Virus record (IMG/VR): IMGVR_UViG_2568526722_000002
Location: 1-54,562 of that record
Length of the DNA: 54,562 bases
Origin: a virus
Lineage: Duplodnaviria > Heunggongvirae > Uroviricota > Caudoviricetes
Strand: one strand, 5' to 3'
Under the pieces are notes generated by a model. That model was not told where the DNA came from, searched no databases, and was given only the letters and a program-made list of their open reading frames with translations. Below are positions 1 to 21,012 of the stretch, one piece after another (position 1 is the stretch's first letter; each line of letters opens with the position of its first letter). The position numbers were made by a program, and so were the translations under genes.

Positions 1-771
1 TCAATAAGTACCCTTCTTATTAGGATTCACACTAAATTTCCGTAAAGCATTCCCCGACTTAAGCACTTTTGAAGCCTGCTCATTAGCTGAGGCTGTGAAG
101 GTGCTCTCACCATTTTTAACGCTAACGCTCTTAGAGCACGTTACACGGGCTTTTAGCGCTTCATCTGATAACTCACTTGCCGAATAGCTAAAAAGCTCTT
201 TACAGGTCAGCATAGGGCTTCCAAGATTCGTTGTAGTGTTCCCTGTATTCTTTTTACTGGTAGCACCACCATCATTTGTGGTAGCCGTTTTGCCAGTGGC
301 TGCTGAAATATCAGTTTGCCCTACGATTGAACGAAACTCTACACCTTGGAAGGTCATCTGAATACGAAGACCATTAGCAATGGTATGCTCTTTACTCGCT
401 TTAAACTGAGTAATGATACTATCAGTGATAGATATTCCATCTTTACAAACAATAGTGATGATTTGCTTCTGGTCTCGCCATTGTTCAACCGTAGAAATAA
501 AGGTTTCTACAAGTTGCCCCTGTCTGGTTAATAGAACTGAACCCGTCGAATCAACCACTACAACACCGCTAATAGAGATGGTCTTAGGTGCTCTCTGAAC
601 ATTATCAGTGATAGTTTGCCCCGATTGCATAGCCTGAGTTGTCACCATCATCGGTGAGTCATAGTCCATCTGTTCAGTAGCTGTTAAGGCAAGAAAAGAT
701 TCTACATTATCTCGAAGATGAAAATAGATACCATCTTTACCTGAGTATCTAATTTGCTTTGTGTCAAACAT
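1..771 (-). CDS. phage tail protein of unknown role, directly downstream of the tape measure gene
   Basis: 256-aa ORF, complete (stop TGA is the reverse complement of positions 1-3); sits immediately 3' of the tape measure gene in a minus-strand operon; no motif recognised. Confidence 0.4.
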
Positions 772-944
772 TGTTGTTATTCCTATTCTGTTAAGCGTGA
801 GCTACGTGAAATCTAATTTTTGATGTTGGTATCTGTTCAGAAGAAATCACGTAGCATTCGACTATTCATAGTTGAATCGTCATACTAGATAAAGATTAAT
901 AGATTGCCATGTGTGGCAATAAATATTAGTAGTTCTAACATTGT

Positions 945-3011
945 TTATTCCTCTGGGTAAGCTGAGCTAATCAAGGTATCTTCCTGCATACGATTAATAT
1001 GTGATGTTGTCCTTTCATCAATAACTTTCCCATCAAGTACCGTCTGAGTTGTGATATTGATTGTCTGAGGCTGAATATTTACTGACGGCTTGATAAGCTT
1101 TAAATCTTGTGTGAATGTTTCCACTCGACCTTTCAGATTATTTAATGCTTCAGGTGAAAACTGTGGAACATCTTTTGATTTGCCCTGAACCATAGCCCAT
1201 AAAACAGTGGCTAAAGAGTTCATGTCACCAGTTAATGCTTGGTCTGTGGGTTCCACCTTTGACCTTACAACTTTATCAATTGGATTATCTGACTTACTCA
1301 TCTGACGTTCATAGAACGGTTTGACAATGGCATTAATCACATCAGTTGCCATACCGATAATCACTACTTTGGTAATTGCATCAGCTACAGATAATTTTCC
1401 TTTACCACCTTCAACACTACCGGAACGTGAATTAATTCTTCCTGCTGCTGTATTTGCTACATTTCCAAGCGTGGAAATAGCCCTAATTAAGTTCCAGATA
1501 CCACCTACAGCACCAATACCAGACCTTACAGCGACAATACCAGCAAGTCCCTTTAATGCACTTAACAGGCCATTTGCGATACCATCAGCTACAGCTTTTT
1601 GAGTGTCATTTAATTCTCTGTAAGCAAGGGTCACTCTGTCAAAGAATCCCTGCACTCGGTAGCTAATCGTGGTTAAATCATCAATACCGTTTGACATGCT
1701 TTTCATCAAGTCGCCAAAATGTTCACCAAGATTTTTAGCTTGACCACCCAGTGAATTAAGTAAATTAGTCAGTGACCTTGTAAAGTCTGTTAAACCTTCC
1801 TGTGAACCATCGAACATTAAGGCCAGATTATTATTCCATGAATTACTTAAGCGGCCTAACTGCGTCTGAGTAGAGTTAATAATCTTTTCCCATCCACCAG
1901 CTTTATCAATCATCCTTCCCATTTCAGCGGATACTTTAGGGAGAACATCTTTAGAAAGAACCTTACCGTCTTTCATGGCCTTGTCTAATTCTTCTGTAGT
2001 CATCCCAAGGCTTCTGGCAAATAACTGGAAAGCACCTGCCATTCTGTCACCTAATTGACCACGTAGCTCTTCAGCCTGAATCTTCCCTTTAGAAGCCATC
2101 TGCTCGAAAGCTTTCAGAATCCCGTTAATTTCATCAGTACTTAAACCCATTAATCTGGATGTGCCAATCACATTAGAAAATAGGGATTCTTTCTGGTCTG
2201 TATTCATATCACCAGCACCAGCGGAAAACTTAGCAAAACTGCTTAATGTTTCAATCTGGTCTACACCTGTATTATTAGCAAGATTCTTAACGAAGTCTGT
2301 AGCTCGTTTAGCGCCTTCATCGCCTAATACAAATTGTGCCGCTCGTTGTGATGCTTCTTTTTTCAGACCAACCTCCATAATCTTCCTATAAGCTTCTAAG
2401 GCTGTCTGAAAACTATAAATGGCTGTACCTGCTTTGATTGCACTTGTAGCTAATACATCTAAACCATTTGAAGCATTTTCACTGTGATTGTTTTTGCTGG
2501 TGGTCTTATTAAACTTAGAAAGTGTTTCACGTAGATTTTGATTTAACTTTGCTAACTCACGATTAAAAGCTTCGTTCCCAAGTGTCTTGGATTTACCGCT
2601 TAAGCTGTAATACTGGCTTCTAAAATACTTCTCAAGTAGAGGATTAAAGTCACGAAGCTTGCTCATATTCACGCTATGCGCTGCTGTGATTGCTCTGTTT
2701 CCGCTAATTCGTGGCTGTCTTGGCTGTCTAAGTGGCTTTAAAGTATCCTCAATTTCAGTTTTAATCTTAAACGCTTTAGTGTTTTTAAGACGCTGCTCAA
2801 TCTTGGAAACAGTCTTATCGACATTTCTTTCCATGACCTTGAGAGAATCATTTAAAGGCGTAGGGTTAACTCTGAATGCCTTATTTAGTCGTTTCTCAAT
2901 TCTTGATGCGATTTGCATCGTTTGTTTCTCGGCTTTTTCCAAGCCTTTTAAAACTTTCTGAGAGTTAAAACTTAACTCAATCAGAAAATCATCAACTTTA
3001 AACTGTGCCAT
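945..3011 (-). CDS. phage tail tape measure protein (lambda gpH-type core)
   Basis: 688 aa, coiled-coil rich; carries the conserved tape-measure core GILKAFEQMASKGKIQAEELRGQLGDRMAGAFQ...TTEELDKAMKDGKVL. Confidence 0.8.
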   Translation of the reverse strand: MAQFKVDDFLIELSFNSQKVLKGLEKAEKQTMQIASRIEKRLNKAFRVNPTPLNDSLKVMERNVDKTVSKIEQRLKNTKAFKIKTEIEDTLKPLRQPRQPRISGNRAITAAHSVNMSKLRDFNPLLEKYFRSQYYSLSGKSKTLGNEAFNRELAKLNQNLRETLSKFNKTTSKNNHSENASNGLDVLATSAIKAGTAIYSFQTALEAYRKIMEVGLKKEASQRAAQFVLGDEGAKRATDFVKNLANNTGVDQIETLSSFAKFSAGAGDMNTDQKESLFSNVIGTSRLMGLSTDEINGILKAFEQMASKGKIQAEELRGQLGDRMAGAFQLFARSLGMTTEELDKAMKDGKVLSKDVLPKVSAEMGRMIDKAGGWEKIINSTQTQLGRLSNSWNNNLALMFDGSQEGLTDFTRSLTNLLNSLGGQAKNLGEHFGDLMKSMSNGIDDLTTISYRVQGFFDRVTLAYRELNDTQKAVADGIANGLLSALKGLAGIVAVRSGIGAVGGIWNLIRAISTLGNVANTAAGRINSRSGSVEGGKGKLSVADAITKVVIIGMATDVINAIVKPFYERQMSKSDNPIDKVVRSKVEPTDQALTGDMNSLATVLWAMVQGKSKDVPQFSPEALNNLKGRVETFTQDLKLIKPSVNIQPQTINITTQTVLDGKVIDERTTSHINRMQEDTLISSAYPEE

Positions 3012-3136
3012 TGTTCATATTTCACCTCATAGACTTCGGATAGAAGACTATCTCATATACAAAAAAGGGAGAAACTACCGATATCACTCGATAATCTCTC
3101 CCGTTGATTTTTACCCAACCAATTCTATTAGAAGCT

Positions 3137-3346
3137 TTAATGGTAAACGTAAGAATACATCCCATCATCACCTAAAATCTGTGCGTCACATGGTAATTTA
3201 TCCAAGCACCATGAAGGAATCTTACGTACCTTTGGTTTGTGTGAGGTGATAACTCGACGTTGATTTCCAGTTCGTAGCTTTGGTTTGGTTTGTAACTTTA
3301 AGTTTTCACAAACAGACCGAATAGTCTCTAAACGTTCTTCAAACAT
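3137..3346 (-). CDS. hypothetical small basic protein
   Basis: 69-aa ORF between the 234-aa ORF and the tape measure gene, same strand. Confidence 0.25.
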   Translation of the reverse strand: MFEERLETIRSVCENLKLQTKPKLRTGNQRRVITSHKPKVRKIPSWCLDKLPCDAQILGDDGMYSYVYH

Positions 3347-3368
3347 TAATCACCTCACATATGCATAA

Positions 3369-4073
3369 TTAAATAACCTTACTAAATTCTCGTGGAACAC
3401 TCAAAAAGTCATTGAAGCTACTAATCTGTGCAAGCTCTTGTTTGTATTCCTTAGCGATTTTTTGATGGTCACGAATCAAATTAGCCAGAGTTGATTTCAC
3501 CAAATTAATCTCGGTTTCTCTTACCTTCATCAGTCGCTTTCTAGCCATTTCTTCAAGCTCAGCTTGTGATTTATCAGAAATAATTAAAGTCAGTTTATGT
3601 GGCGCTCTGACAGCTCTTTCTGTACGAACAACTCTTTGGCCTTCTGGTAAATCTGCAATCACTTTACCAATTTCTGAATGGTCATATCCCCAACCGTCAC
3701 GGTCTAGTCTTGTATAATAATCGTAGGTGTTTGTCTGAAGCTCCATCAAAATAGCCATTTCGTCAACTTCATTTTCAAGTTTGGACTGAAGTTTTTCGTA
3801 AACACGATTCATAGCTTTTTGAGAGTCTCGAAGGTCTTTGAAATATTTGCGTTGCAGCTTCAGTTTCAAATCAAGCTCACATTCCTCATTCATCGAAAAA
3901 TCAATTTCAACTCTTGGAATCTCAAATGGTTCTGGTGGAATATATGGACCTTTATTTACTTCGTGTGATTCCCGCCAAGCTCTATCAAAAGATTCACGCA
4001 AAGTTAATTCGTGAATATCAAGTGCACTTGGTCGGCTTTCAATAATCATTTCATTTTCATCACGGATAGCCAT
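3369..4073 (-). CDS. hypothetical phage protein upstream of tape measure gene (possibly a tail assembly chaperone)
   Basis: 234-aa ORF co-oriented with and just upstream of the tape measure gene; function inferred only from position. Confidence 0.3.
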   Translation of the reverse strand: MAIRDENEMIIESRPSALDIHELTLRESFDRAWRESHEVNKGPYIPPEPFEIPRVEIDFSMNEECELDLKLKLQRKYFKDLRDSQKAMNRVYEKLQSKLENEVDEMAILMELQTNTYDYYTRLDRDGWGYDHSEIGKVIADLPEGQRVVRTERAVRAPHKLTLIISDKSQAELEEMARKRLMKVRETEINLVKSTLANLIRDHQKIAKEYKQELAQISSFNDFLSVPREFSKVI

Positions 4074-4330
4074 TAATACCTTTCCTCTTCTAAGATAATT
4101 TATGTTTCAGTTTTTAAAAAGCACACCTGACAGCCTGCGAACTTAGAAGAGACTTAAAAGGCGTTTGCCAAGTATGCTTTTTAAAAGCTGAAAAAAGCCC
4201 TAAACATAGGTGATTCGGATATTCATGGAATCATCCTCATCTGTGAAGGGCTTTGGAGGTTTGCTTATAACGTTAACGAAGTTTCAGGAAAAACTTTCTT
4301 TAAAAGCTCTGTTTAAAACTCTTAAAGAAA

Positions 4331-4358
4331 ACGCCCTAACTCATGATTAGGGCAAAGC
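4331..4358 (-). terminator. candidate intrinsic terminator (minus strand)
   Basis: Inverted repeat GCCCTAA..TTAGGGC followed on the minus strand by a T-rich run, between two minus-strand genes. Confidence 0.3.
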
Positions 4359-4574
4359 TGTAAGGGTTCAATAATGAATGATTAAGCACTTTTTGAGATG
4401 ACCTCTCAGACTAAACTGAAAGGCCATGACGAAAAGCATTGCACCTTTCCAACTCAGAATATCCATCCATCGGATTATTGAAAATATGATTTTAGGAAAA
4501 ATTGCTCTTCCTATATATACAATTATGTCATGCTTAAGATTATTTGTCAACAGCTTTTTAACAGATTGGTAACA

Positions 4575-4652
4575 TCAATTTTTATTTACCGCGTTGCCCA
4601 CCCAGCAACCAACAAATAAACCTAAAGCTGTCCAAGCAATTATTAAGCCCAT
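4575..4652 (-). CDS. small hydrophobic peptide (25 aa, single predicted TM), translationally coupled
   Basis: Not in the ORF track (<60 aa). Reads MGLIIAWTALGLFVGCWVGNAVNKN; its ATG overlaps the stop of the upstream 107-aa ORF (TAATG); AGGTGG lies 6-11 nt upstream. Confidence 0.3.
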   Translation of the reverse strand: MGLIIAWTALGLFVGCWVGNAVNKN

Positions 4653-4975
4653 TAATGCACCACCTTCGAATCCGTAACCAAAACATTGTCAGCGTACAAA
4701 ATTACTATAGCCGCCTTGAGATATTTTTCAGGGCTAACGCTGTATCGGTTAGTTTCCTCAATAATAAGGCGCTTCATGTTTGAGTCGGTAACGGGAAACA
4801 TAAAACGTGGGTCACCAGTTTCAATTTCCTGAATAAAATCTTCAATTGTTTCTGAGTTATCAGCCATTAGCTTTAACAGCCTGTCAAAGTCAATGCTAAT
4901 ACCTGCATCAGTGAAGCTTTGCACCATCATAGCAGTGTCGGTATCAATAAAAATTTGTAATGGGTAACTGTTCAT
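4652..4975 (-). CDS. hypothetical protein
   Basis: 107-aa ORF in the minus-strand gene string of the AT-rich element. Confidence 0.4.
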   Translation of the reverse strand: MNSYPLQIFIDTDTAMMVQSFTDAGISIDFDRLLKLMADNSETIEDFIQEIETGDPRFMFPVTDSNMKRLIIEETNRYSVSPEKYLKAAIVILYADNVLVTDSKVVH

Positions 4976-4998
4976 TTCTTAAAATCTCCTTTTTCACC

Positions 4999-5118
4999 AG
5001 ACCTCCTCAATCGCTCTGTAACGAGCTAAACAGTCTTTTTCAGGGGTAGCCTGTACAGTGGTATTACCCACCCTAAAATAGGGTAGTTTTTTGCGTTAGA
5101 ATGCGATTGAGAGCGTCT
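4999..5118. repeat. structured repeat element, copy 1 (conserved arms CTCAATCGC / GCGATTGAG around a hairpin plus T-tract)
   Basis: Arms nearly identical to copy 2 at 6654-6750; internal hairpin ACCCTA-AAA-TAGGGT followed by TTTTTTG; lies just 3' of the HNH gene. Confidence 0.6.
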
Positions 5119-5132
5119 GAGAAGCTGTTTTT

Positions 5133-5420
5133 CTAATTTCTCTTAAAGTCTCGGACTTGCATAAGATTTTTTGGTCTGGTATCGGCTCTGTTACCATTTC
5201 GATGGATAATTTGCTTATTGGATTGATAGCCATGATAAAGGAACCAGACAACATATTTCACGTAGAAAGTGTATCGGCCTATATTAAATGTTTTGTTGCC
5301 GTAGTCGTCGGTATTTATCGTGACCGACTCTCCATCAGACCAGCACAGGGAATCACTGGATTCATCATAGATAAGGTGTTCTGTAAAATATCGTCTAACA
5401 TCTTCATGCCAAGGTTTCAT
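5133..5420 (-). CDS. HNH homing-type endonuclease (HNH_3-like)
   Basis: 95 aa; C-terminal pattern YVKYVVWFLYHGY...IIHRNGNRADTRPKNL parallels the HRLAW..HG..IDHxNGN..DNRxENL signature of the second HNH gene at 47704. Confidence 0.6.
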   Translation of the reverse strand: MKPWHEDVRRYFTEHLIYDESSDSLCWSDGESVTINTDDYGNKTFNIGRYTFYVKYVVWFLYHGYQSNKQIIHRNGNRADTRPKNLMQVRDFKRN

Positions 5421-5632
5421 AAAACCTCCTCACCCCAATAACCTAATTCAATCTTGTGACGCTCAAACCATTCCGGTTTAACTGCTGTTTTCAGTGCTTC
5501 ATTTGGGCCAATGGCTTTAATGAAAATATCTTTTGAGTTATGGATGTCACCGAATCCGTTTCCTTCAATCAGGAGGTCGGAGATGTAGCGAATCATTTTA
5601 TCTGTGTGGTATTCAAAGGTAACGCATAGCAT
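5417..5632 (-). CDS. hypothetical protein
   Basis: 71-aa ORF, start overlaps the stop of the downstream HNH gene. Confidence 0.35.
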   Translation of the reverse strand: MLCVTFEYHTDKMIRYISDLLIEGNGFGDIHNSKDIFIKAIGPNEALKTAVKPEWFERHKIELGYWGEEVL

Positions 5633-5913
5633 TAAACCTCCATCGCTAATTTGTGAATTTTGATACTCATTAGACGGGAAATATCAATTTTAAAGTTGTT
5701 AAGTCCCTTCAAAGTATCTAAAGCGTCCTGAGTAATTCGGATGTGTTTACGACCTTTAGAGACTGGATATTTCAGTAAATCCGACTCAGTGACCTCTTTA
5801 GCAATCGCAAGTTGCATAATAGTTTGATGAGGCAGGCTAGTTGTCTGTTTAATTCGGGTAAGCTCGTTAAAAGCTTCCTCTGAAATACGGGTTAATGTGT
5901 GTCTGCTTTTCAT
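5632..5913 (-). CDS. hypothetical small protein, possibly DNA-binding
   Basis: ORF track gives 5632-5994; the internal ATG at 5913 has a GGAGGAA Shine-Dalgarno and sits 1 nt after the stop of the upstream 183-aa ORF. Confidence 0.35.
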   Translation of the reverse strand: MKSRHTLTRISEEAFNELTRIKQTTSLPHQTIMQLAIAKEVTESDLLKYPVSKGRKHIRITQDALDTLKGLNNFKIDISRLMSIKIHKLAMEV

Positions 5914-5914
5914 T

Positions 5915-6466
5915 TTAAAATTCCTCCAAAATATACGGGTCAAACTCAAAGTCTGGTTCACTGGTCGTAAGGCTAATATTGCCCACTTCCACATGATGAT
6001 TGATTGTCTCGATAACTTTATTGCAAATGGTGGCTAAGTTAGCGCAATATTTATCGCTTGGTAGCTCATGGCTTAATCGGGTCGCTTGACGCTGAAGACA
6101 ATTTGTTATTGTGCTTGAGCTAATTTTGTCAATATTTCGTAATAGATAGAAAACTTTCCGGTGATAATTATCCCTTCCAAGACTGCGACAAGTACCGATA
6201 ATTATATCTTCAATTTTTGATGGTAATTGCTCGTAAGAATCAAAGCTCATCAGGAAAGTCTTTAAAGTGTTCTCTTTTTCTTTGCGTGTTGGCATGTGTC
6301 TTACCCGTGGCGTAATGCTACGAATGACCGCTTCAATGTTTCTACGTTCGGATTTGGTAAAGGCTGGGACTTCGTAGCTGGTGGGGGTGTCTGTGTAGCT
6401 GTAACCGTTGTGTCTGTTGCGTCTCTTGGATTCTTCAAGAAACTTTTGAAATTCTCTGTCGTTCAT
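5915..6466 (-). CDS. hypothetical protein
   Basis: 183-aa ORF; no recognised motif. Confidence 0.4.
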   Translation of the reverse strand: MNDREFQKFLEESKRRNRHNGYSYTDTPTSYEVPAFTKSERRNIEAVIRSITPRVRHMPTRKEKENTLKTFLMSFDSYEQLPSKIEDIIIGTCRSLGRDNYHRKVFYLLRNIDKISSSTITNCLQRQATRLSHELPSDKYCANLATICNKVIETINHHVEVGNISLTTSEPDFEFDPYILEEF

Positions 6467-6549
6467 TCATATTCTGACCCTCATAAGATGTTATTATTCT
6501 GTTAACTCATATATACAATACTAGCAGTTTCAAAGACTAATGTCAAGTA

Positions 6550-6582
6550 TTTTTTAACATTTTATTAACATTTGTGGTATAA
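6550..6582 (+). promoter_or_regulatory. candidate sigma70 promoter with extended -10 (TGgTATAAT)
   Basis: TATAAT at 6577-6582 preceded by TG one base upstream; AT-rich upstream region; points rightward into repeat copy 2. Confidence 0.4.
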
Positions 6583-6653
6583 TGGTCCTATGGGGAGAGT
6601 AAAATATAAAGGCGTGGCCATGTATTTGGTCACATGGTTATTGCATTGCACAC

Positions 6654-6750
6654 AGACCTCTTCAATCGCCCTGTAACGAGTTAAACGACCTCTTCAGGTC
6701 AACTCATAAGGTCAGGTACTTTTTGTGTCAGAATGCGATTGAGAGCGTCT
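6654..6750. repeat. structured repeat element, copy 2
   Basis: Same conserved arms as copy 1; different internal hairpin (GACCT-CTTC-AGGTC) followed by TTTTTG. Confidence 0.6.
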
Positions 6751-6764
6751 TACAAGGAAATTTA

Positions 6765-6953
6765 ATGGTAAATCTCCCTCCTGAGCTGGGGTCACCTGAT
6801 GTATGGGCTGGTGGAGGTATTGGACTTATTGCAGGTCTGCTGCTTCGCTATTTCATCGTCAGAGTGTTTATCGTGTTCAGATTGTTTGGTCGTGAATGGT
6901 CGTTTGACCTCAAGGACAGAGGCCGTGAAGACAATCACACAGAACCCCGCTAA
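6765..6953 (+). CDS. candidate small membrane protein (62 aa)
   Basis: Internal start of track ORF 6723-6953; AAGGAAA Shine-Dalgarno before the ATG at 6765; hydrophobic stretch GGGIGLIAGLLLRYFIVRVFIVF; downstream of the promoter and repeat copy 2. Confidence 0.25.
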   Translation: MVNLPPELGSPDVWAGGGIGLIAGLLLRYFIVRVFIVFRLFGREWSFDLKDRGREDNHTEPR

Positions 6954-7071
6954 ACTCCCTCCAAAACCCCCTGTACGAGATGGTATAGGGGTATCTTTAG
7001 CATTTTGTGCTATCCATGAAAAAATAACTTGACAGAACCGGAAAGCTGTATCTATCAAGTATTCACCCTTC

Positions 7072-7226
7072 TAACAGTAATTTCTAAAAGTTCTTATTTT
7101 TCAATAAGTTGTAATTAGCCATATATAGAGAACTGACAAGTCTCTTCACAGACAACTCTGCAACCTTAACAGTAACTTCTAAAAATGCTTATTTTTCAAC
7201 GAGTTGTAATCACCCAATATATAAGG
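7072..7226. repeat. two imperfect ~60-bp direct repeats (period ~95 bp) in a non-coding region
   Basis: TAACAGTAAyTTCTAAAA..CTTATTTTTCAAyrAGTTGTAAT..ATATATA occurs at 7072-7131 and 7167-7226. Confidence 0.6.
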
Positions 7227-8029
7227 CTGTCCAGCACCTTCACAGAGAAACTTCAGAGGTCTTCTTAATCAATCCACTAAGCGGGAGAGAGCGATAACCC
7301 CAGAGAGGGAAGCTCCCTTCTTAATCGGCCTCCTAACCAGTCTTTACAAACCTTGTTCAAGGTAATCACAATAGATTTTTCTTCCCTCGTTCTTCGTGTT
7401 CCTCGGTTTGCCTATTGAGACTTGAAAGACCTCTGTAACTTCCCTCTTAGACAGGGAAGAATAATATTGGTGACACAAGCGAAGCGCCCCTCTAAAAAGA
7501 TTTTTTAGCTATTTTGTTTAAAAACACATCAAACGATACATTTTATTGATTTAGGTCAAAGACAAAAGCATTGACAAAATGGTAAGATTGTTCACATGAC
7601 CTTACTTAACAGACTTTTAAGAGGCTTTGAAACGACCTACTTAACAAGGTCACTACATCTGGTCTTATCGTTCCCTGTCTTCTTGGTAGTTCTGTTAAGT
7701 ATCTTTTCAGGTATCTCTTACAGTCACTGTTAAGATGATACTCTCCCTTCGGGTTATATCGTATCTCTTCCCCCGTTAAACACTCCTTCCTAACAACTTC
7801 ATAGTTATCTGTCAAGTACCTTTGAAGATTCTATCAAGACCTCTAAATCTGACCTGATATAGATGCTGTGAAGGCATGTTCTCTAGGTCTGTGTAGCTTA
7901 CTTAGCGGGAAAAGAGGATATGGTGACCATAGGGGAACCCCTCCTGTTAAAAGTTTCTTGATGTTATCATCACAATATGTATAATCACCAACTGTACAGA
8001 CACCTTAACGGTTTCTCTACACCTCACTA

Positions 8030-8095
8030 TGGCTAGGTAGGGTATGGTTTAGCTTGGTACGGCTAGGTTAGGTCTGGTTTGGTTAGGTATGGGTG
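8030..8095. repeat. G/T-rich iterated short repeats (GGTTAGGT / GGCTAGGT / GGTCTGG units)
   Basis: Run of 7-8-bp GGT-rich units read directly from the sequence; iteron-like. Confidence 0.5.
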
Positions 8096-8127
8096 GATTG
8101 TCGTAGCCACGTTAAAAATCGACTTAT

Positions 8128-8152
8128 AGGGACTCTTTCGGGAGTCCTTTTT
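8128..8152 (+). terminator. candidate intrinsic terminator
   Basis: Hairpin GGGACTC-TTTCG-GGAGTCC followed by TTTTTAG. Confidence 0.35.
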
Positions 8153-8381
8153 AGTTTGTATAAAATCTGTACAGTAACTTTTCAGAGTCTGAAAATTTTT
8201 ATAAAAAATGACTAGCCCTCTTTGAATCTCATCTTCCCCGAATCTTCGAAAATATCTGTCTAGTTGATTCGGTAGAATCTACCTCATGATGTATACCTGC
8301 TAAGTACCCGTCACACCAGCTATGTGACCCCCTTTGCAAAAAAGCCAAATATCAGCTACATCCATGTAACTATTCGGTAAC

Positions 8382-8930
8382 TTATTTAGCAAGTCTGTAA
8401 TAAGTTGCTTTAGAGATTCCTAATTCTTCCTGAATCTGCAACCTCGTTTTACCTTGTGAAATAAGCGTCTGTACAGCCTCTGAAGAAGCTTTTACAGGCC
8501 TCCCCATATGTACCCCTTCAGCTTTAGCACGTTCAATACCAGCCTTTCTACGTTCACTGATAAGGTCTTTTTCAAGGTCAGCTAAACCAGCCATCATAGT
8601 AAGCATTGCTCTACCGATTGGTGTTAATAAGTCGAAACCTTCACGCAAAGAAACAACTCTCACACCTTTAGTCTGTAGTGCCTCCACGTTAGAGAGCACA
8701 TCAACGGTATTACGCCCTAAACGGTCAATAGCTACCACAACTAACGTATCGTCACACCTTACATAGTTCATCATGTCTCTAAAACCATCTCTGCTGGTGG
8801 CCTTTGTAGCTCCTGAGACAGCCTCATCAATAAACCATTTATCGACCTTGTGAACCTTCTCTATCTGTAGTTTCTGGTTGTCTACAGTCTGGTCTTGTGT
8901 TGATACCCTGCAATAACCAATCACCGCCAT
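8382..8930 (-). CDS. small serine recombinase (resolvase/invertase family)
   Basis: 182 aa; N-terminal catalytic block IGYCRVSTQDQ (Ser nucleophile), VVAIDRLGRN, and a C-terminal HTH; typical resolvase size. Confidence 0.85.
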   Translation of the reverse strand: MAVIGYCRVSTQDQTVDNQKLQIEKVHKVDKWFIDEAVSGATKATSRDGFRDMMNYVRCDDTLVVVAIDRLGRNTVDVLSNVEALQTKGVRVVSLREGFDLLTPIGRAMLTMMAGLADLEKDLISERRKAGIERAKAEGVHMGRPVKASSEAVQTLISQGKTRLQIQEELGISKATYYRLAK

Positions 8931-8945
8931 ACATCCCCCTTAGAA

Positions 8946-9050
8946 GTCTCAAAAGTTGGTCTCATAAGTTTAGCTGTCTCACAATCCAAAAACAACCTTT
9001 TGAGACACTTGGAAGGTGCATTCTACCGTTACGTTGAAAGTGTCTCAAAA
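8946..9050. promoter_or_regulatory. res-like array of recombinase half-sites upstream of the serine recombinase gene
   Basis: Five GTCTCA / TGAGAC motifs in both orientations within ~100 bp immediately 5' of the recombinase gene; resembles the TGTCyNNTA half-sites of Tn3-type res sites. Confidence 0.4.
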
Positions 9051-17768: not shown

Positions 17769-18913
17769 GTGTAGTTCACCTCGCCACGAACAGCCAGCTC
17801 CCCAACTCCCGGCTCAATATTCGCAGAAGGCGACACAAGGATATAACCTGAAGTACCGGCAACATCCCCTATCGCGCGGTTGAGATCTGAAAGGTAAATT
17901 TTCCCTGTGCCGAGCGGGTTAGCAGATTCAAACAATACCCCGTCAATCGCATCAGCAATGGCCGCAGTCGTTGCGCTGTCGGCATCAGATATCCCGCTTA
18001 TTTCAAAATCGATAACGCGTTCGATGGGAGAGCAGACATAGTTAAGGGAGGTAACCGGCGCAAGCGGATACATATAATCGGCAACTCTCCCCTGATCCCC
18101 GGTGGCTTTTACAGCCCCCCACTCTTCCAGTTGAGAGACACCGTCAGTTCCTGCAGGGAATCCATGATTGGTTTTATCATCGCCGTCGCACATGATGTAA
18201 ATCACCACGGTACCCGGCCCCATCCCCCGGCGCCGTATCCATGCCCTGGTGATCCCCGACACGGATAAAGCCCAGCTTTTATAATCAGTGTCACTCCCGC
18301 CCTGCGGGGGATTCTGATACGCCAGCAGACCACGTAATCGGAAATCCTCTTCACTTTCAATGTTGGCGCCGCCGGTGGCGGGCTCAATCAGCGTAACCGA
18401 GCTGTCTATGCCGGGGGCATTAGCATCCAGTGTAAGAATGGTGCCAGCATCGGCATTTCCGGAAGCGCCTCCTCCTGTCACATCGTCTGTGATATCCGGC
18501 AAAACCGCTGTTACAGCAACCGACGCACTGCCAGCAGTGTTTATCGTTATGGCATCATCGGTTGTGTACTGGTAACCATCATCACGGTTTAACACCGCCC
18601 CTTTTGACAGTGTTTTCCCCGGCGTTCCGGTAACGGTCGCCGCCGGAGAGCGTGCTGCCGTTGCGGCTTTTCGGTAAATCTGCTTTAGCGCCATCCATCC
18701 GGCAAGCCACTCATCGGTAGAGGTGAAAGGCGTGCTCTGACGGGCAATATAATCCAGGTAGGCGTAGTGCAGATGGGCCATGCCCGCATCCATATCAGCG
18801 AGCACCTTAAGGTTGCCAAACCGTAACAACGCGCCAACACTTTCAAGCTCTGCCTGCATAAACTGGCGATTCTCCTGCCGGAGCTCGCTCAGTGTTTTCC
18901 GCTTAAATGGCAT
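17765..18913 (-). CDS. baseplate J-like protein (Mu gp47-like)
   Basis: 382 aa; synteny W-J-gp48 in the Mu-type baseplate module. Confidence 0.7.
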   Translation of the reverse strand: MPFKRKTLSELRQENRQFMQAELESVGALLRFGNLKVLADMDAGMAHLHYAYLDYIARQSTPFTSTDEWLAGWMALKQIYRKAATAARSPAATVTGTPGKTLSKGAVLNRDDGYQYTTDDAITINTAGSASVAVTAVLPDITDDVTGGGASGNADAGTILTLDANAPGIDSSVTLIEPATGGANIESEEDFRLRGLLAYQNPPQGGSDTDYKSWALSVSGITRAWIRRRGMGPGTVVIYIMCDGDDKTNHGFPAGTDGVSQLEEWGAVKATGDQGRVADYMYPLAPVTSLNYVCSPIERVIDFEISGISDADSATTAAIADAIDGVLFESANPLGTGKIYLSDLNRAIGDVAGTSGYILVSPSANIEPGVGELAVRGEVNYT

Positions 18914-19352
18914 TATTCAGTTGCTCCCATAGCCAGAAGAATTTGAACTCCTGCCAGTCCCCCGTCGGCGGCAAATACCGGATGATGAGGTTCAGCCTGT
19001 TCGGGAAAACAATCTCTGACTGAGCCTCTATCGCTGCTGCAATACCATCCGACTTCATCCAGGCCAGAGCCTCTTCGGCGTAATCTTCAGCTCTCATCGC
19101 CACTTCGCGCGTCAGTTTTTCACGCCGCAGTAGCCACAGCCTTGAGCCAATATTCCGGTCGTTGTCCAGATCCCCCCACCAGCCGCGGCGGTCAGTTCCT
19201 TCATAATCATCATCAGCGCGCGCCAGTCCGTCAGTAAACAAACTGATAATAATGGCCGTGTGCATATCATTCTCAGATGCCAGTACGCCGTTACCGGTTT
19301 GCCAGTCAGCATGAATGGCATCCACATCCCAGAATGAGGAAATATCACTCAT
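18903..19352 (-). CDS. baseplate protein, GP46/W family
   Basis: 149 aa; GDW...SLFTD...RRGWWGD...GSRLWLL pattern typical of the phage GP46 family. Confidence 0.75.
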   Translation of the reverse strand: MSDISSFWDVDAIHADWQTGNGVLASENDMHTAIIISLFTDGLARADDDYEGTDRRGWWGDLDNDRNIGSRLWLLRREKLTREVAMRAEDYAEEALAWMKSDGIAAAIEAQSEIVFPNRLNLIIRYLPPTGDWQEFKFFWLWEQLNNAI

Positions 19353-19930
19353 ACCTGACTCTCTGTTTTTTCGCTTGTGATCGTGCTATCGCCGGACTGA
19401 ACTTCTTTAACGTCATGGTCATGATCGTTGTGAGCATCCCGCAGCGCTTTGAGCGTTGAATTGTTCGTCTCGCAGTTATCGATGATGTCACCCGTCACCA
19501 GGAGTTTGGGGGTAACCAGCTTTACCTGTTCCGTTGCCGTCGCGGTGATGTTTCGGGCATTGTTGATCTCTACATCTTTGCCTTTCGCATCAATGAAAAT
19601 TCCCGCCTCAGTCAGATGAATATTCATCCCCTGCTGGTTATAGACCACGGTTTCGCCTGGCTTAAGCCCGGTATGCCGGTAGCTTTGATGGTTAGAGGCA
19701 ATGACGACGGGACTGGAGCGGTCCCCGCCGAGAAAGGCAATAACCACATCCGATCCCGCCGGCAACCCCGATGAAAAACCAAAATCAGAGAGCCGTGGGG
19801 CGCTGGCCACTTCCAGCGGAGTCTGGTACTGGATTTCCTGCACAACCCCGCTATCTTTCTGCGTGGTAATACGGCCAATGCCCAGCATGCCGGCGATGCG
19901 CGTGGTCGATTTCTTTAAATTTTGATTCAT
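19349..19930 (-). CDS. baseplate assembly protein V (spike)
   Basis: 193 aa; gpV-like size, sequence pattern and position. Confidence 0.7.
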   Translation of the reverse strand: MNQNLKKSTTRIAGMLGIGRITTQKDSGVVQEIQYQTPLEVASAPRLSDFGFSSGLPAGSDVVIAFLGGDRSSPVVIASNHQSYRHTGLKPGETVVYNQQGMNIHLTEAGIFIDAKGKDVEINNARNITATATEQVKLVTPKLLVTGDIIDNCETNNSTLKALRDAHNDHDHDVKEVQSGDSTITSEKTESQV

Positions 19931-21012
19931 TGGTTTAGTCCGGGTATTTGCTGGTAGAAAGCATAAGGCTGGACAGCGAAAGCCTCCGGGGGCATCAGAT
20001 AAAGGCGCGCATGGGTGCCGTCACTGTCTCTGATATAAGTCACCTCTGCGATAAGCAATTCGGTGTCAGGCAGCTGCAGACTCGGGATGTTGACCGGGAT
20101 AAGCGTATTCGGCTCCCATAATTTCCCGGATTTATCGCGCCAGGAATCAATCGTCACCGTTAACTGACGGGAACGGCCGTATCGGCGGTTCATCTCCCAG
20201 TCAATCGCTCGCTGAGCCTGTTGTGAAGCCATCAGTGTACTTTCAACAATAATGATCCGTTTTCGGTAACGCATACTGGCCGCCTCAGGATCGCGGGCCG
20301 TCGCCAGCGTCACCGAATCATAAGCCGTATCTGGCGAGAATCCTGCAATCGGCGAAATGCTCATCGATACGCCGACGTAATCAGAAAAGCGGTCAGCCAT
20401 CGAACGGCGGTAATAAGCCTGTTCGATATTTACCCCTTCTGCGATACCGCTGGCCGCGCGCTTTGTCCCCACCCGGGTCAGAAATAAGTTACCGTCAGGC
20501 TGATCGTAATAAAGCAATGCCGACCAGCGGGAGACACGATCAAGTATTTCCTGTGGCGATTCCCCCCAGTTCAGGGAAAATTGCGGAACTTTCACCAGAT
20601 CATCAACGTCTGTACTTACGCCAATGTTGTAATGGGATGCGAGGCGGGAGGCAATATCAAGCGCATTACTGTTATTGATGACGTTATTTGGCCATTCAGC
20701 AGAGCAATCAACGAGATCTGCGCACTTACTGCGGCCTGAGGCTCTGACTTCATGGCGCGAACGGGAAATAGCAGGCGACCAGTCATCAACATACCCCGTC
20801 ACTACCAGGTCGTTACCAAGCTTTACCTGACAAGGCATCCCTTCCTTTACCAGCTGCTTCTGGTCACTTCCCGGAAAATAATCCATCAGTCCCAGGTCAA
20901 AATCGGAGGGAAAACGCTCAATGCCACGGGTCACCCGCACAGAGTCCCATCCTTCAATGATTTTTCCGCCCACTGTCAGGGAGACAATATCCTGATCATT
21001 ATCCGTACTCAT
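19927..21012 (-). CDS. Mu gp44 (P)-like baseplate hub protein
   Basis: 361 aa; sits between the DNA-circularisation-like gene and gpV as in Mu. Confidence 0.6.
   Translation of the reverse strand: MSTDNDQDIVSLTVGGKIIEGWDSVRVTRGIERFPSDFDLGLMDYFPGSDQKQLVKEGMPCQVKLGNDLVVTGYVDDWSPAISRSRHEVRASGRSKCADLVDCSAEWPNNVINNSNALDIASRLASHYNIGVSTDVDDLVKVPQFSLNWGESPQEILDRVSRWSALLYYDQPDGNLFLTRVGTKRAASGIAEGVNIEQAYYRRSMADRFSDYVGVSMSISPIAGFSPDTAYDSVTLATARDPEAASMRYRKRIIIVESTLMASQQAQRAIDWEMNRRYGRSRQLTVTIDSWRDKSGKLWEPNTLIPVNIPSLQLPDTELLIAEVTYIRDSDGTHARLYLMPPEAFAVQPYAFYQQIPGLNQ

Follow-up and report, generated by a model that had tools for sequence, protein, structure and literature searches.

A conserved gene-poor region of an Escherichia coli chromosomal island holds a copy of a Felix O1-like phage genome-end boundary and may act as a satellite packaging signal

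Satellites that carry the packaging site of their helper phage include P4, with the cos site of P2, and the cos-type Staphylococcus aureus pathogenicity islands (SaPIs) and Escherichia coli phage-inducible chromosomal islands (PICIs), such as SaPIbov5 and EcCICFT073. In these cos-site satellites the helper terminase packages the element through the copied site, with cos cleavage aided by HNH nucleases in a number of the systems. The PLE of Vibrio cholerae, an element resembling phage-inducible chromosomal islands, encodes its own replication initiator, RepA, which acts on an iteron origin. [quoted passage not shown] PICMIs are ~6 kb long, lie next to fis, encode AlpA, an integrase, and a primase, and have random (headful) packaged ends, with no pac or cos site found (PMC10803314). 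Here we describe region 6500–8380 of a stretch of 54,562 nucleotides (IMG/VR record IMGVR_UViG_2568526722_000002, positions 1 to 54,562; hereafter, the window), which lies within an ~11-kb island of the E. coli chromosome. Judging from sequence comparison, we see about an even chance that this is the conserved cis-acting and regulatory region of a satellite island of virulent Felix O1-like myoviruses (Ounavirinae), with a copy of a phage genome-end boundary serving as the packaging signal for the helper terminase.

The most informative feature of the region, which the initial annotation of this DNA did not report, is a phage-homologous segment at 8162–8354 (plus strand). All phage matches of the region were to Felix O1-like phages (Felixounavirus and Mooglevirus) and fell into three pieces, at 8162–8354, 7625–7698, and 8028–8123. 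The first of these aligns with the middle of a ~1.7-kb gene-free region of the phages and, as a packaging-site mimic would, runs across the boundary of the 580/581-bp repeat of two phage records. Phage Pr103Blw is packaged by 581-bp direct terminal repeats according to PhageTerm analysis (PMC8303462), and its record carries the repeat at both ends; the independent record of phage E9, part of a phage set for which direct terminal repeats have been reported (PMC11737134), has a 580-bp repeat with the same boundaries, and the same base serves as the point of linearisation in a third record (pEP20). In the coordinates of phage JH2 (locus L003 in our numbering of compared sequences), the repeat lies at 3058–3648. 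On this mapping, segment 8162–8354 spans one repeat boundary, with the equivalent of the cut at 8302/8303, and the piece at 7625–7698 (plus strand) falls inside the repeat, being 78%–80% identical over 55–65 nt to positions 255–318 of Pr103Blw (repeat 1–581).

A 53-nt core of the boundary copy (56 nt in some matches) is 93%–98% identical to several phages, compared with 30%–67% for island proteins. The copy is present in every island examined, even where neighbouring modules differ; in two islands (L017 and L018) blastn found only its left half, and a MAFFT alignment showed the motifs there too. Around the cut, AAAATATC, CTGCTnnGTAnCC, CCCCTTTGCAAAA, and AAATATC are common to 11 islands and five phages, and at the cut itself (marked by a slash) the phage reads ...GATGTATATCTGCTT/GGTAGCCCTTAACA, whereas the island reads ...GATGTATACCTGCTA/AGTACCCGTCACA. 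Inverted symmetry links the two ends of the Felixounavirus repeat, which read GGTAGCCCTTAACA and GCCCCCTTAACA at their inward starts (L009/L010 and L036/L037), a pattern of bases that suggests a common cleavage motif at both phage repeat boundaries. Within the boundary copy, a 24-nt mini-hairpin (GTTGATTCGGTAGAATCTACCTCAT, ~8264–8287) varies in presence, at one and the same position, among the islands and among the phages, and this common polymorphism points to repeated DNA exchange between them. In the terminal non-coding region of Felix O1-like phages, the 24-nt palindromic mini-element GATTCGRTAGAATCTAYCTCAT occurs in zero to three copies (L002, L003, L005, and L006). This element, which Pr103Blw lacks, behaves like a very small mobile insertion.

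The likeness extends to a short motif. Non-coding DNA at 6990–8380 contains 5.75 copies of YTAACAR per kb, a count reached by none of 2,000 shuffles, versus 1.05 per kb elsewhere in the island, and the related 6-mer TTAACA occurs 19 times in the first kb of Pr103Blw versus a genome mean of 1.7 per kb. The third phage-homologous piece, a G/T element at 8028–8123, is 74%–79% identical to two early-region intergenic elements of phage garuso and its relatives, which lie downstream of the ligase gene and of a sigma-70-type promoter, not at the genome end. This element is missing from several islands (L012, L013, L018, and L019). The G/T-rich run of the initial annotation was readily recovered here (8041–8092 by TRF; a repeat family at 8028–8087 in the repeat search), but the supposed iterons are two copies of one repeat, and the G/T units form a module held in common with Felix O1-like intergenic regions, not a regular iteron array.

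Positions 1–9507 of the window make up most of the ~11-kb island, and the window begins directly after the gene for a large serine recombinase, which stands at the left end of homologous copies and is itself just outside. In strain TB182A, the ~11-kb insert lies between tonB and yciI and consists, in order, of the large serine recombinase, a "baseplate" (Dit-like) gene, a tape-measure gene, several unknowns, an HNH gene, three unknowns, region 6500–8380, and a small serine recombinase. The island region was found on the chromosomes of 532 of 5,426 complete E. coli genomes, at up to five places per genome; all 653 places are chromosomal and none is on a plasmid, and region 6500–8380 had no match among PLSDB plasmids. 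There are at least three attachment sites (tonB/yciI, within yecE, and ymdF/rutG), with the yecE and ymdF/rutG copies carrying other right-end genes, for example an AP2/HNH protein or a Dam-type methylase. Beyond E. coli, in a search of one genome per species, the island was detected only in E. albertii. Three matches were obtained in IMG/VR, all on contigs of 25–52 kb, which supply no evidence for packaging, and a protein-based scan of that collection found none.

The island excises as a circle through the large serine recombinase. Among the contigs screened for a circular form, namely those encoding the neighbouring 183-aa protein, metagenome contig L030 (ENA ERZ27241592 k141_307676) is 11,141 bp long and has ends that overlap by 126 bp, so that the circle measures 11,015 bp, and a contig from another dataset (L032; Logan SRR13378612_144159) likewise has the recombinase end joined directly to the right end. 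A search for the sample accessions turned up no paper that mentions them. A 13-bp core, TCAAGGGTCATTG, is common to attL and attR; it forms the right end of the island at 9495–9507 and recurs in the attP reconstituted in L030, where the inverted repeats CCGAATAG and CTATTCGG flank it. Stand-alone island-sized contigs were also considered as evidence of packaging and were rejected, being mostly integrated copies with flanking chromosome or with ends at attachment sites.

The tail genes of the island (1–3011, minus strand) provide a further link to the same phages, their closest relatives being adjacent Felixounavirus genes. The Dit-like protein (1–771) shows 67% amino acid and 70% nucleotide identity to the Pr103Blw gene that comes after the one for the tape measure, and the best full-length matches of the tape-measure protein (945–3011) are Felixounavirus tape-measure proteins with 28%–30% amino acid identity, the island protein being 54 aa shorter (688 versus 742 aa). 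Possession of these genes suggests that tails, and not capsids, are the target of remodelling or interference by the island. The only domains recognized in island open reading frames (ORFs) with Pfam and PHROGs were Dit-like, tape-measure, HNH_3, and resolvase, and neither collection revealed capsid, portal, or terminase genes among them; the sole additions from NCBIfam were weaker matches of the small recombinase to recombinase families, and PADLOC yielded no additions.

The island shows several general features of a satellite: its own recombinase with attachment sites and excision, no virion gene set, and specific links to a putative helper. Excision, the phage links, conservation of the region, and homology lying on an annotated genome-end boundary are together our grounds for regarding it as a probable satellite tied to Felix O1-like phages. 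We propose that, upon infection by the helper, the island would excise and multiply, that the helper terminase would recognize the boundary copy around 8302/8303, together with the YTAACAR-rich DNA, as a packaging signal, and that island DNA would then be loaded into helper capsids. Loading may take the form of ~8-unit concatemers, which we suggest because 8 × 11.0–11.5 kb comes to roughly the 88 kb of the helper genome and because PICMIs offer a precedent. Promoter-like sites, a conserved leader (element A), and repeats of the motif TTTCAAYRAGTTGTAAT, all described below, would set the timing of island gene expression. A more inclusive version holds that the region is the packaging and induction module of an undescribed, common E. 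coli/Shigella satellite family, which parasitises virulent Felix O1-like myoviruses by copying one terminal-repeat boundary and brings its own tape-measure and Dit proteins; we advance this version tentatively, as plausible yet short of an even chance.

Several points count against a packaging function. Detectable phage homology covers just ~330 nt of the 1.9-kb region, and several bases differ at the cut, where the island has CTGCTA/AGTACCC and the phage CTGCTT/GGTAGCCC. No counterpart of the second repeat boundary of the phage was found in the island, and with a single boundary-like site the two-cut mechanism of the phage is not fully mimicked. The best-conserved blocks of the region, 6970–7150 and 7480–7630, are left unexplained by a packaging account, and the phage repeat boundaries were taken from the annotations of the submitters. 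Helper-driven induction, replication, and encapsidation are steps that we infer for the island, and replication or transcription, rather than recognition by the terminase, could be the role of the phage boundary sequence or of the YTAACAR motifs.

The main rival reading takes up this last point and sees in the region a replication origin that depends on the helper, or a transcription hub that responds to phage, whose phage-like sequences, namely the YTAACAR arrays, the DNA flanking the boundary, and the G/T element, would bind replication or transcription proteins of the helper, so that the island would be copied or switched on only during infection, with packaging proceeding headful or via another site. 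The 1.7-kb gene-free terminal region of the phage could indeed hold the phage origin, the G/T element derives from early-gene intergenic regions below a promoter and not from the genome end, and the island, being without a recognizable replication protein, would need functions of the helper or the host; promoter- and terminator-like sites are also present, some of them in highly conserved blocks, in numbers not well above those in shuffled sequence. However, the strongest and most widely kept homology falls on the mapped genome-end cut and not on a known origin or promoter, the region has neither DnaA boxes nor a regular iteron array, and the G/T module is missing from several islands. We rate this rival as unlikely, while giving it real weight, with perhaps one chance in four; the narrower proposal of an origin fired by replication proteins of the helper is possible. 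An origin or partition site of the plasmid type, which the initial annotation had entertained, is not supported, given the absence of PLSDB matches, of an adjacent Rep or Par domain, and of any DnaA box within one mismatch, and the presence of just two repeat copies. Its wider claim, that such a region is functional and not junk, fits the conserved, mostly cis-acting character of the DNA and its promoter- and terminator-like sites, although nothing in it is specific to plasmid origins or partition sites.

Descent without present function offers another explanation, under which the island is a decayed temperate relative of Felix O1-like phages and the region is leftover terminal DNA, kept mainly for the promoters of the island and no longer interacting with any phage. 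Few phage-type genes are left (tape measure, Dit, and HNH), with no capsid or terminase gene among them, and phage homology is undetectable over most of the region. A relic would nevertheless be hard to reconcile with an island that is widespread, occupies up to five places per genome and several attachment sites, and has been seen as an excised circle, with a boundary copy that all members retain and whose core closely matches present-day phages; moreover, the insertion polymorphism common to islands and phages indicates ongoing exchange and not ancient decay. We therefore consider a relic improbable. Far less probable still is a region that works as an invertible switch, in which the small serine recombinase would flip ~1.5 kb between perfect 13-bp inverted repeats (6435–6447 and 7949–7961), or as one long structured RNA. 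The repeat and an adjacent invertase-type gene invite the former idea, but the 10 homologous loci examined are all oriented alike, and even islands that carry the recombinase, itself variable cargo, do not conserve the repeat arms; the collinear loci and unconserved arms largely refute a switch. For a structured RNA, no Rfam match was found in the region at the gathering score or even at E ≤ 5, so that a known RNA family is not supported, and consensus folds of 7100–7950 are weak (−4 to −10 kcal/mol per 120 nt).

Returning to the region as a putative regulatory and packaging module, its composition, coding content, and conservation were assessed with an alignment of 11 diverged island copies. 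Its GC content is 0.38–0.41, compared with 0.37–0.41 in the rest of the island and ~0.53 in the rest of the window, so that the description of the region as AT-rich is apt relative to the host chromosome but not relative to the island. Nor is it entirely gene-free, as had been claimed: an ORF of 62 codons at 6765–6953 (plus strand) starts with ATG, has an AAGGAA ribosome-binding site, and is preserved intact in all 11 islands, where it encodes 58–62 aa with an in-frame indel (RefSeq WP_044863321.1), and its variable columns are distributed 14/3/29 over the three codon positions. On account of this intactness and codon-position bias, we regard it as a real gene; its product has a hydrophobic stretch in its centre, with one predicted hydrophobic helix, and would be a membrane protein, with no family match in NCBIfam or PADLOC. 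No other ORF of ≥20 codons in 6470–7960 is both preserved and codon-position-biased, so that ~1 kb (6990–7960), together with 8150–8380, is truly non-coding, and to this extent the original claim holds.

The non-coding part shows 68%–98% identity per 30-nt block, which exceeds chance and matches or surpasses the 83%–85% of adjoining coding sequence, and conservation peaks at 6520–6579, 6970–7149, and 7480–7629. The last of these (block 7480–7630, 90%–97%) is the best-conserved truly non-coding block and contains neither a conserved ORF nor a strong conserved RNA fold. Blocks 5900–7950, ~8156–8341, and 9150–9467 were present in every island examined, and 7950–8155 and the cargo genes differ between islands. 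In sliding RNAalifold consensus folds, conserved structure appeared only near the terminator after the small ORF and near element A. Being conserved and non-coding without a strong RNA fold, the region fits DNA that is bound by protein.

Upstream of the small gene, consensus matches mark a strong divergent promoter-like pair at 6518–6583, of which block 6520–6579 is 94% conserved in the 11 islands. The leftward site (6546 to 6518; TTGACA-17-TAGTAT with TG) faces the operon of the 183-aa gene, and the rightward site (6554–6583; TTAACA-18-TATAAT with TG) faces the region. Seven promoter-like and four terminator-like sites were counted overall, versus 5.1 and 1.6 in shuffled sequence, which is not well above expectation. 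A promoter is also predicted at ~7030. Element A, the conserved leader (6646–6765, plus strand), is closed by an 8-bp stem, TCAATCGC/GCGATTGA, and contains an inner hairpin with a T run after it; its single-sequence fold is not clearly better than those of shuffles (z = −1.7). A paralogue, element B, lies at 4991–5132 between two leftward genes. Because A and B have the same orientation, complementarity between opposite-strand transcripts would fall near the ribosome-binding site of the 107-aa gene, and trans-antisense control through the two elements is possible. B is missing from three of 10 islands, and the two copies vary too little for covariation to be seen. In five islands (L001, L022, L027, L030, and L031), a 57-nt module, found here at 9081–9133 near the recombinase, stands in place of element A, and small non-coding modules are thus shuffled between positions within the island family.

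The small gene is followed by a terminator-like hairpin with a weak T run (6968–6991, plus strand), located in a 96%-conserved block (6970–6999) and included in the consensus fold of 6950–7069 (−30.7 kcal/mol, z = −4.8). Beyond it, the direct repeat with a period of ~95 bp noted initially is confirmed as two copies at 7072–7121 and 7167–7216 (7072–7216, plus strand; 50 nt each, 86% identical), each with the motif TTTCAAYRAGTTGTAAT. This motif occurs three times in the island (7099, 7194, and 9337–9353 near the right end) and not at all in the phage genome, and it is a candidate island-specific operator or promoter. The 7-bp stem CTTCCCT/AGGGAAG exists as described, at 7439–7445 and 7453–7459, but ~0.9 such stems are expected by chance in 1.9 kb (1,900 positions × 8 loop sizes × 4^−7), and it yields no notable consensus fold. 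An accessory module at 7958–8149 (plus strand) comprises a promoter-like site (7958–7985), the G/T element, and an intrinsic terminator at 8128–8149, where the terminator-like hairpin that had been proposed was found with a 9-bp stem preceding a T run. The module could yield a transcript of ~165 nt, whose single-sequence fold is not clearly better than those of shuffles (z = −1.9).

To the right of the region lies the gene for a small serine recombinase of 182 aa, of the resolvase/invertase type (8382–8930, minus strand; Pfam, PHROGs, and NCBIfam). Its position holds different genes in other islands, and it is therefore variable cargo outside the conserved region. TGTCTCA...TGAGACA repeats at ~8940–9060, upstream of this gene and in the same variable module, are likely, from their sequence and placement, to be its res or crossover site. 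A second invertase-type recombinase of 182 aa (10144–10692, minus strand) comes right after yciI and adjoins prophage tail and baseplate genes (10899–20000); the stretch 10144–20000 appears to be a separate prophage equipped with a Pin/Gin-like tail-fibre switch. The same order of island, yciI, invertase, and tail genes recurs in metagenome contig L033. The island has a second gene-free stretch of ~580 bp at 4074–4651, between genes for 234 and 107 aa, with a long hairpin at ~4103–4196 for which Rfam gave just sub-threshold matches to eukaryotic miRNA precursor models. Elsewhere in the window, a match to the Hfq-binding sRNA isrJ was found at 38420–38493 (minus strand; 68.7 bits versus a gathering score of 37 in Rfam), and no tRNA genes were detected within the window.

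Diagnostics, biocontrol, and therapy for Salmonella and E. coli all make heavy use of Felix O1-like phages. A full-text literature search, with most subscription journals outside its coverage, so that an earlier description is possible, returned nothing linking satellites to these phages; within the same coverage, neither a mimic of a terminal-repeat boundary nor tail tape-measure and Dit genes in a satellite was found. If the interpretation given here is true, the island would be the first known satellite of a group of phages on which typing and biocontrol of Salmonella and E. coli widely draw, and the first to mimic a terminal-repeat boundary. As an element that hijacks or blocks such phages in ~10% of complete E. 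coli genomes, it would affect phage efficacy and gene transfer, and it would provide a tractable E. coli counterpart to the PLE/ICP1 pair of Vibrio. The shared boundary sequence also offers a direct way into the question of how genome ends are set in phages with direct terminal repeats, a matter on which little is understood outside T7.

Compared with the terminal region of Felixounavirus and Mooglevirus phages (~1.7–1.9 kb, gene-free), the island region is similarly rich in YTAACAR and shares with it the boundary sequence and the 24-nt mini-hairpin. It differs in that only three short blocks are homologous, in that the piece from the repeat interior stands upstream of the boundary piece, and in its own promoter-like sites, small gene, and island-specific repeats. 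On core genes, the island is not a member of PLE, PICI, P4, or PICMI: searches of Pfam, PHROGs, and NCBIfam for the core genes of P4, PICI, and PICMI gave no match to a primase, a replication initiator, a tyrosine integrase, AlpA, psu, delta, sid, or alpha, a capsid, or a terminase, and the island recombinase is of the serine type.

Nonetheless, like P4 and the cos-type SaPIs and PICIs, it is a small integrated element without its own terminase that carries a copy of the genome-end sequence of its (putative) helper, and, as in some cos-site satellite systems, an HNH-domain protein is encoded in the island. The helpers of P4, SaPIs, and PICIs are temperate cos phages and the copied site is a cohesive-end site, whereas the putative helper here is a virulent myovirus with direct terminal repeats of ~580 bp, and the island, unlike cos-site satellites, copies only one of two repeat boundaries. 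With PLE it has in common a chromosomal location, a large serine recombinase, a virulent myovirus as (putative) helper, and a sizeable non-coding, cis-acting region; however, PLE is ~18 kb long and has its own initiator and the capsid-remodelling protein TcaP, and no initiator or capsid-scaffold family was found in the island with Pfam, PHROGs, and NCBIfam. The island further departs from PLE in carrying homologues of the tape-measure and Dit proteins of its putative helper, and in its host, Escherichia, and phage lineage. As with PICMI, we are dealing with a putative satellite of a virulent phage, about one-eighth the size of the helper genome and without a capsid-remodelling gene; unlike PICMI, the island holds a specific sequence from the end of the helper genome.

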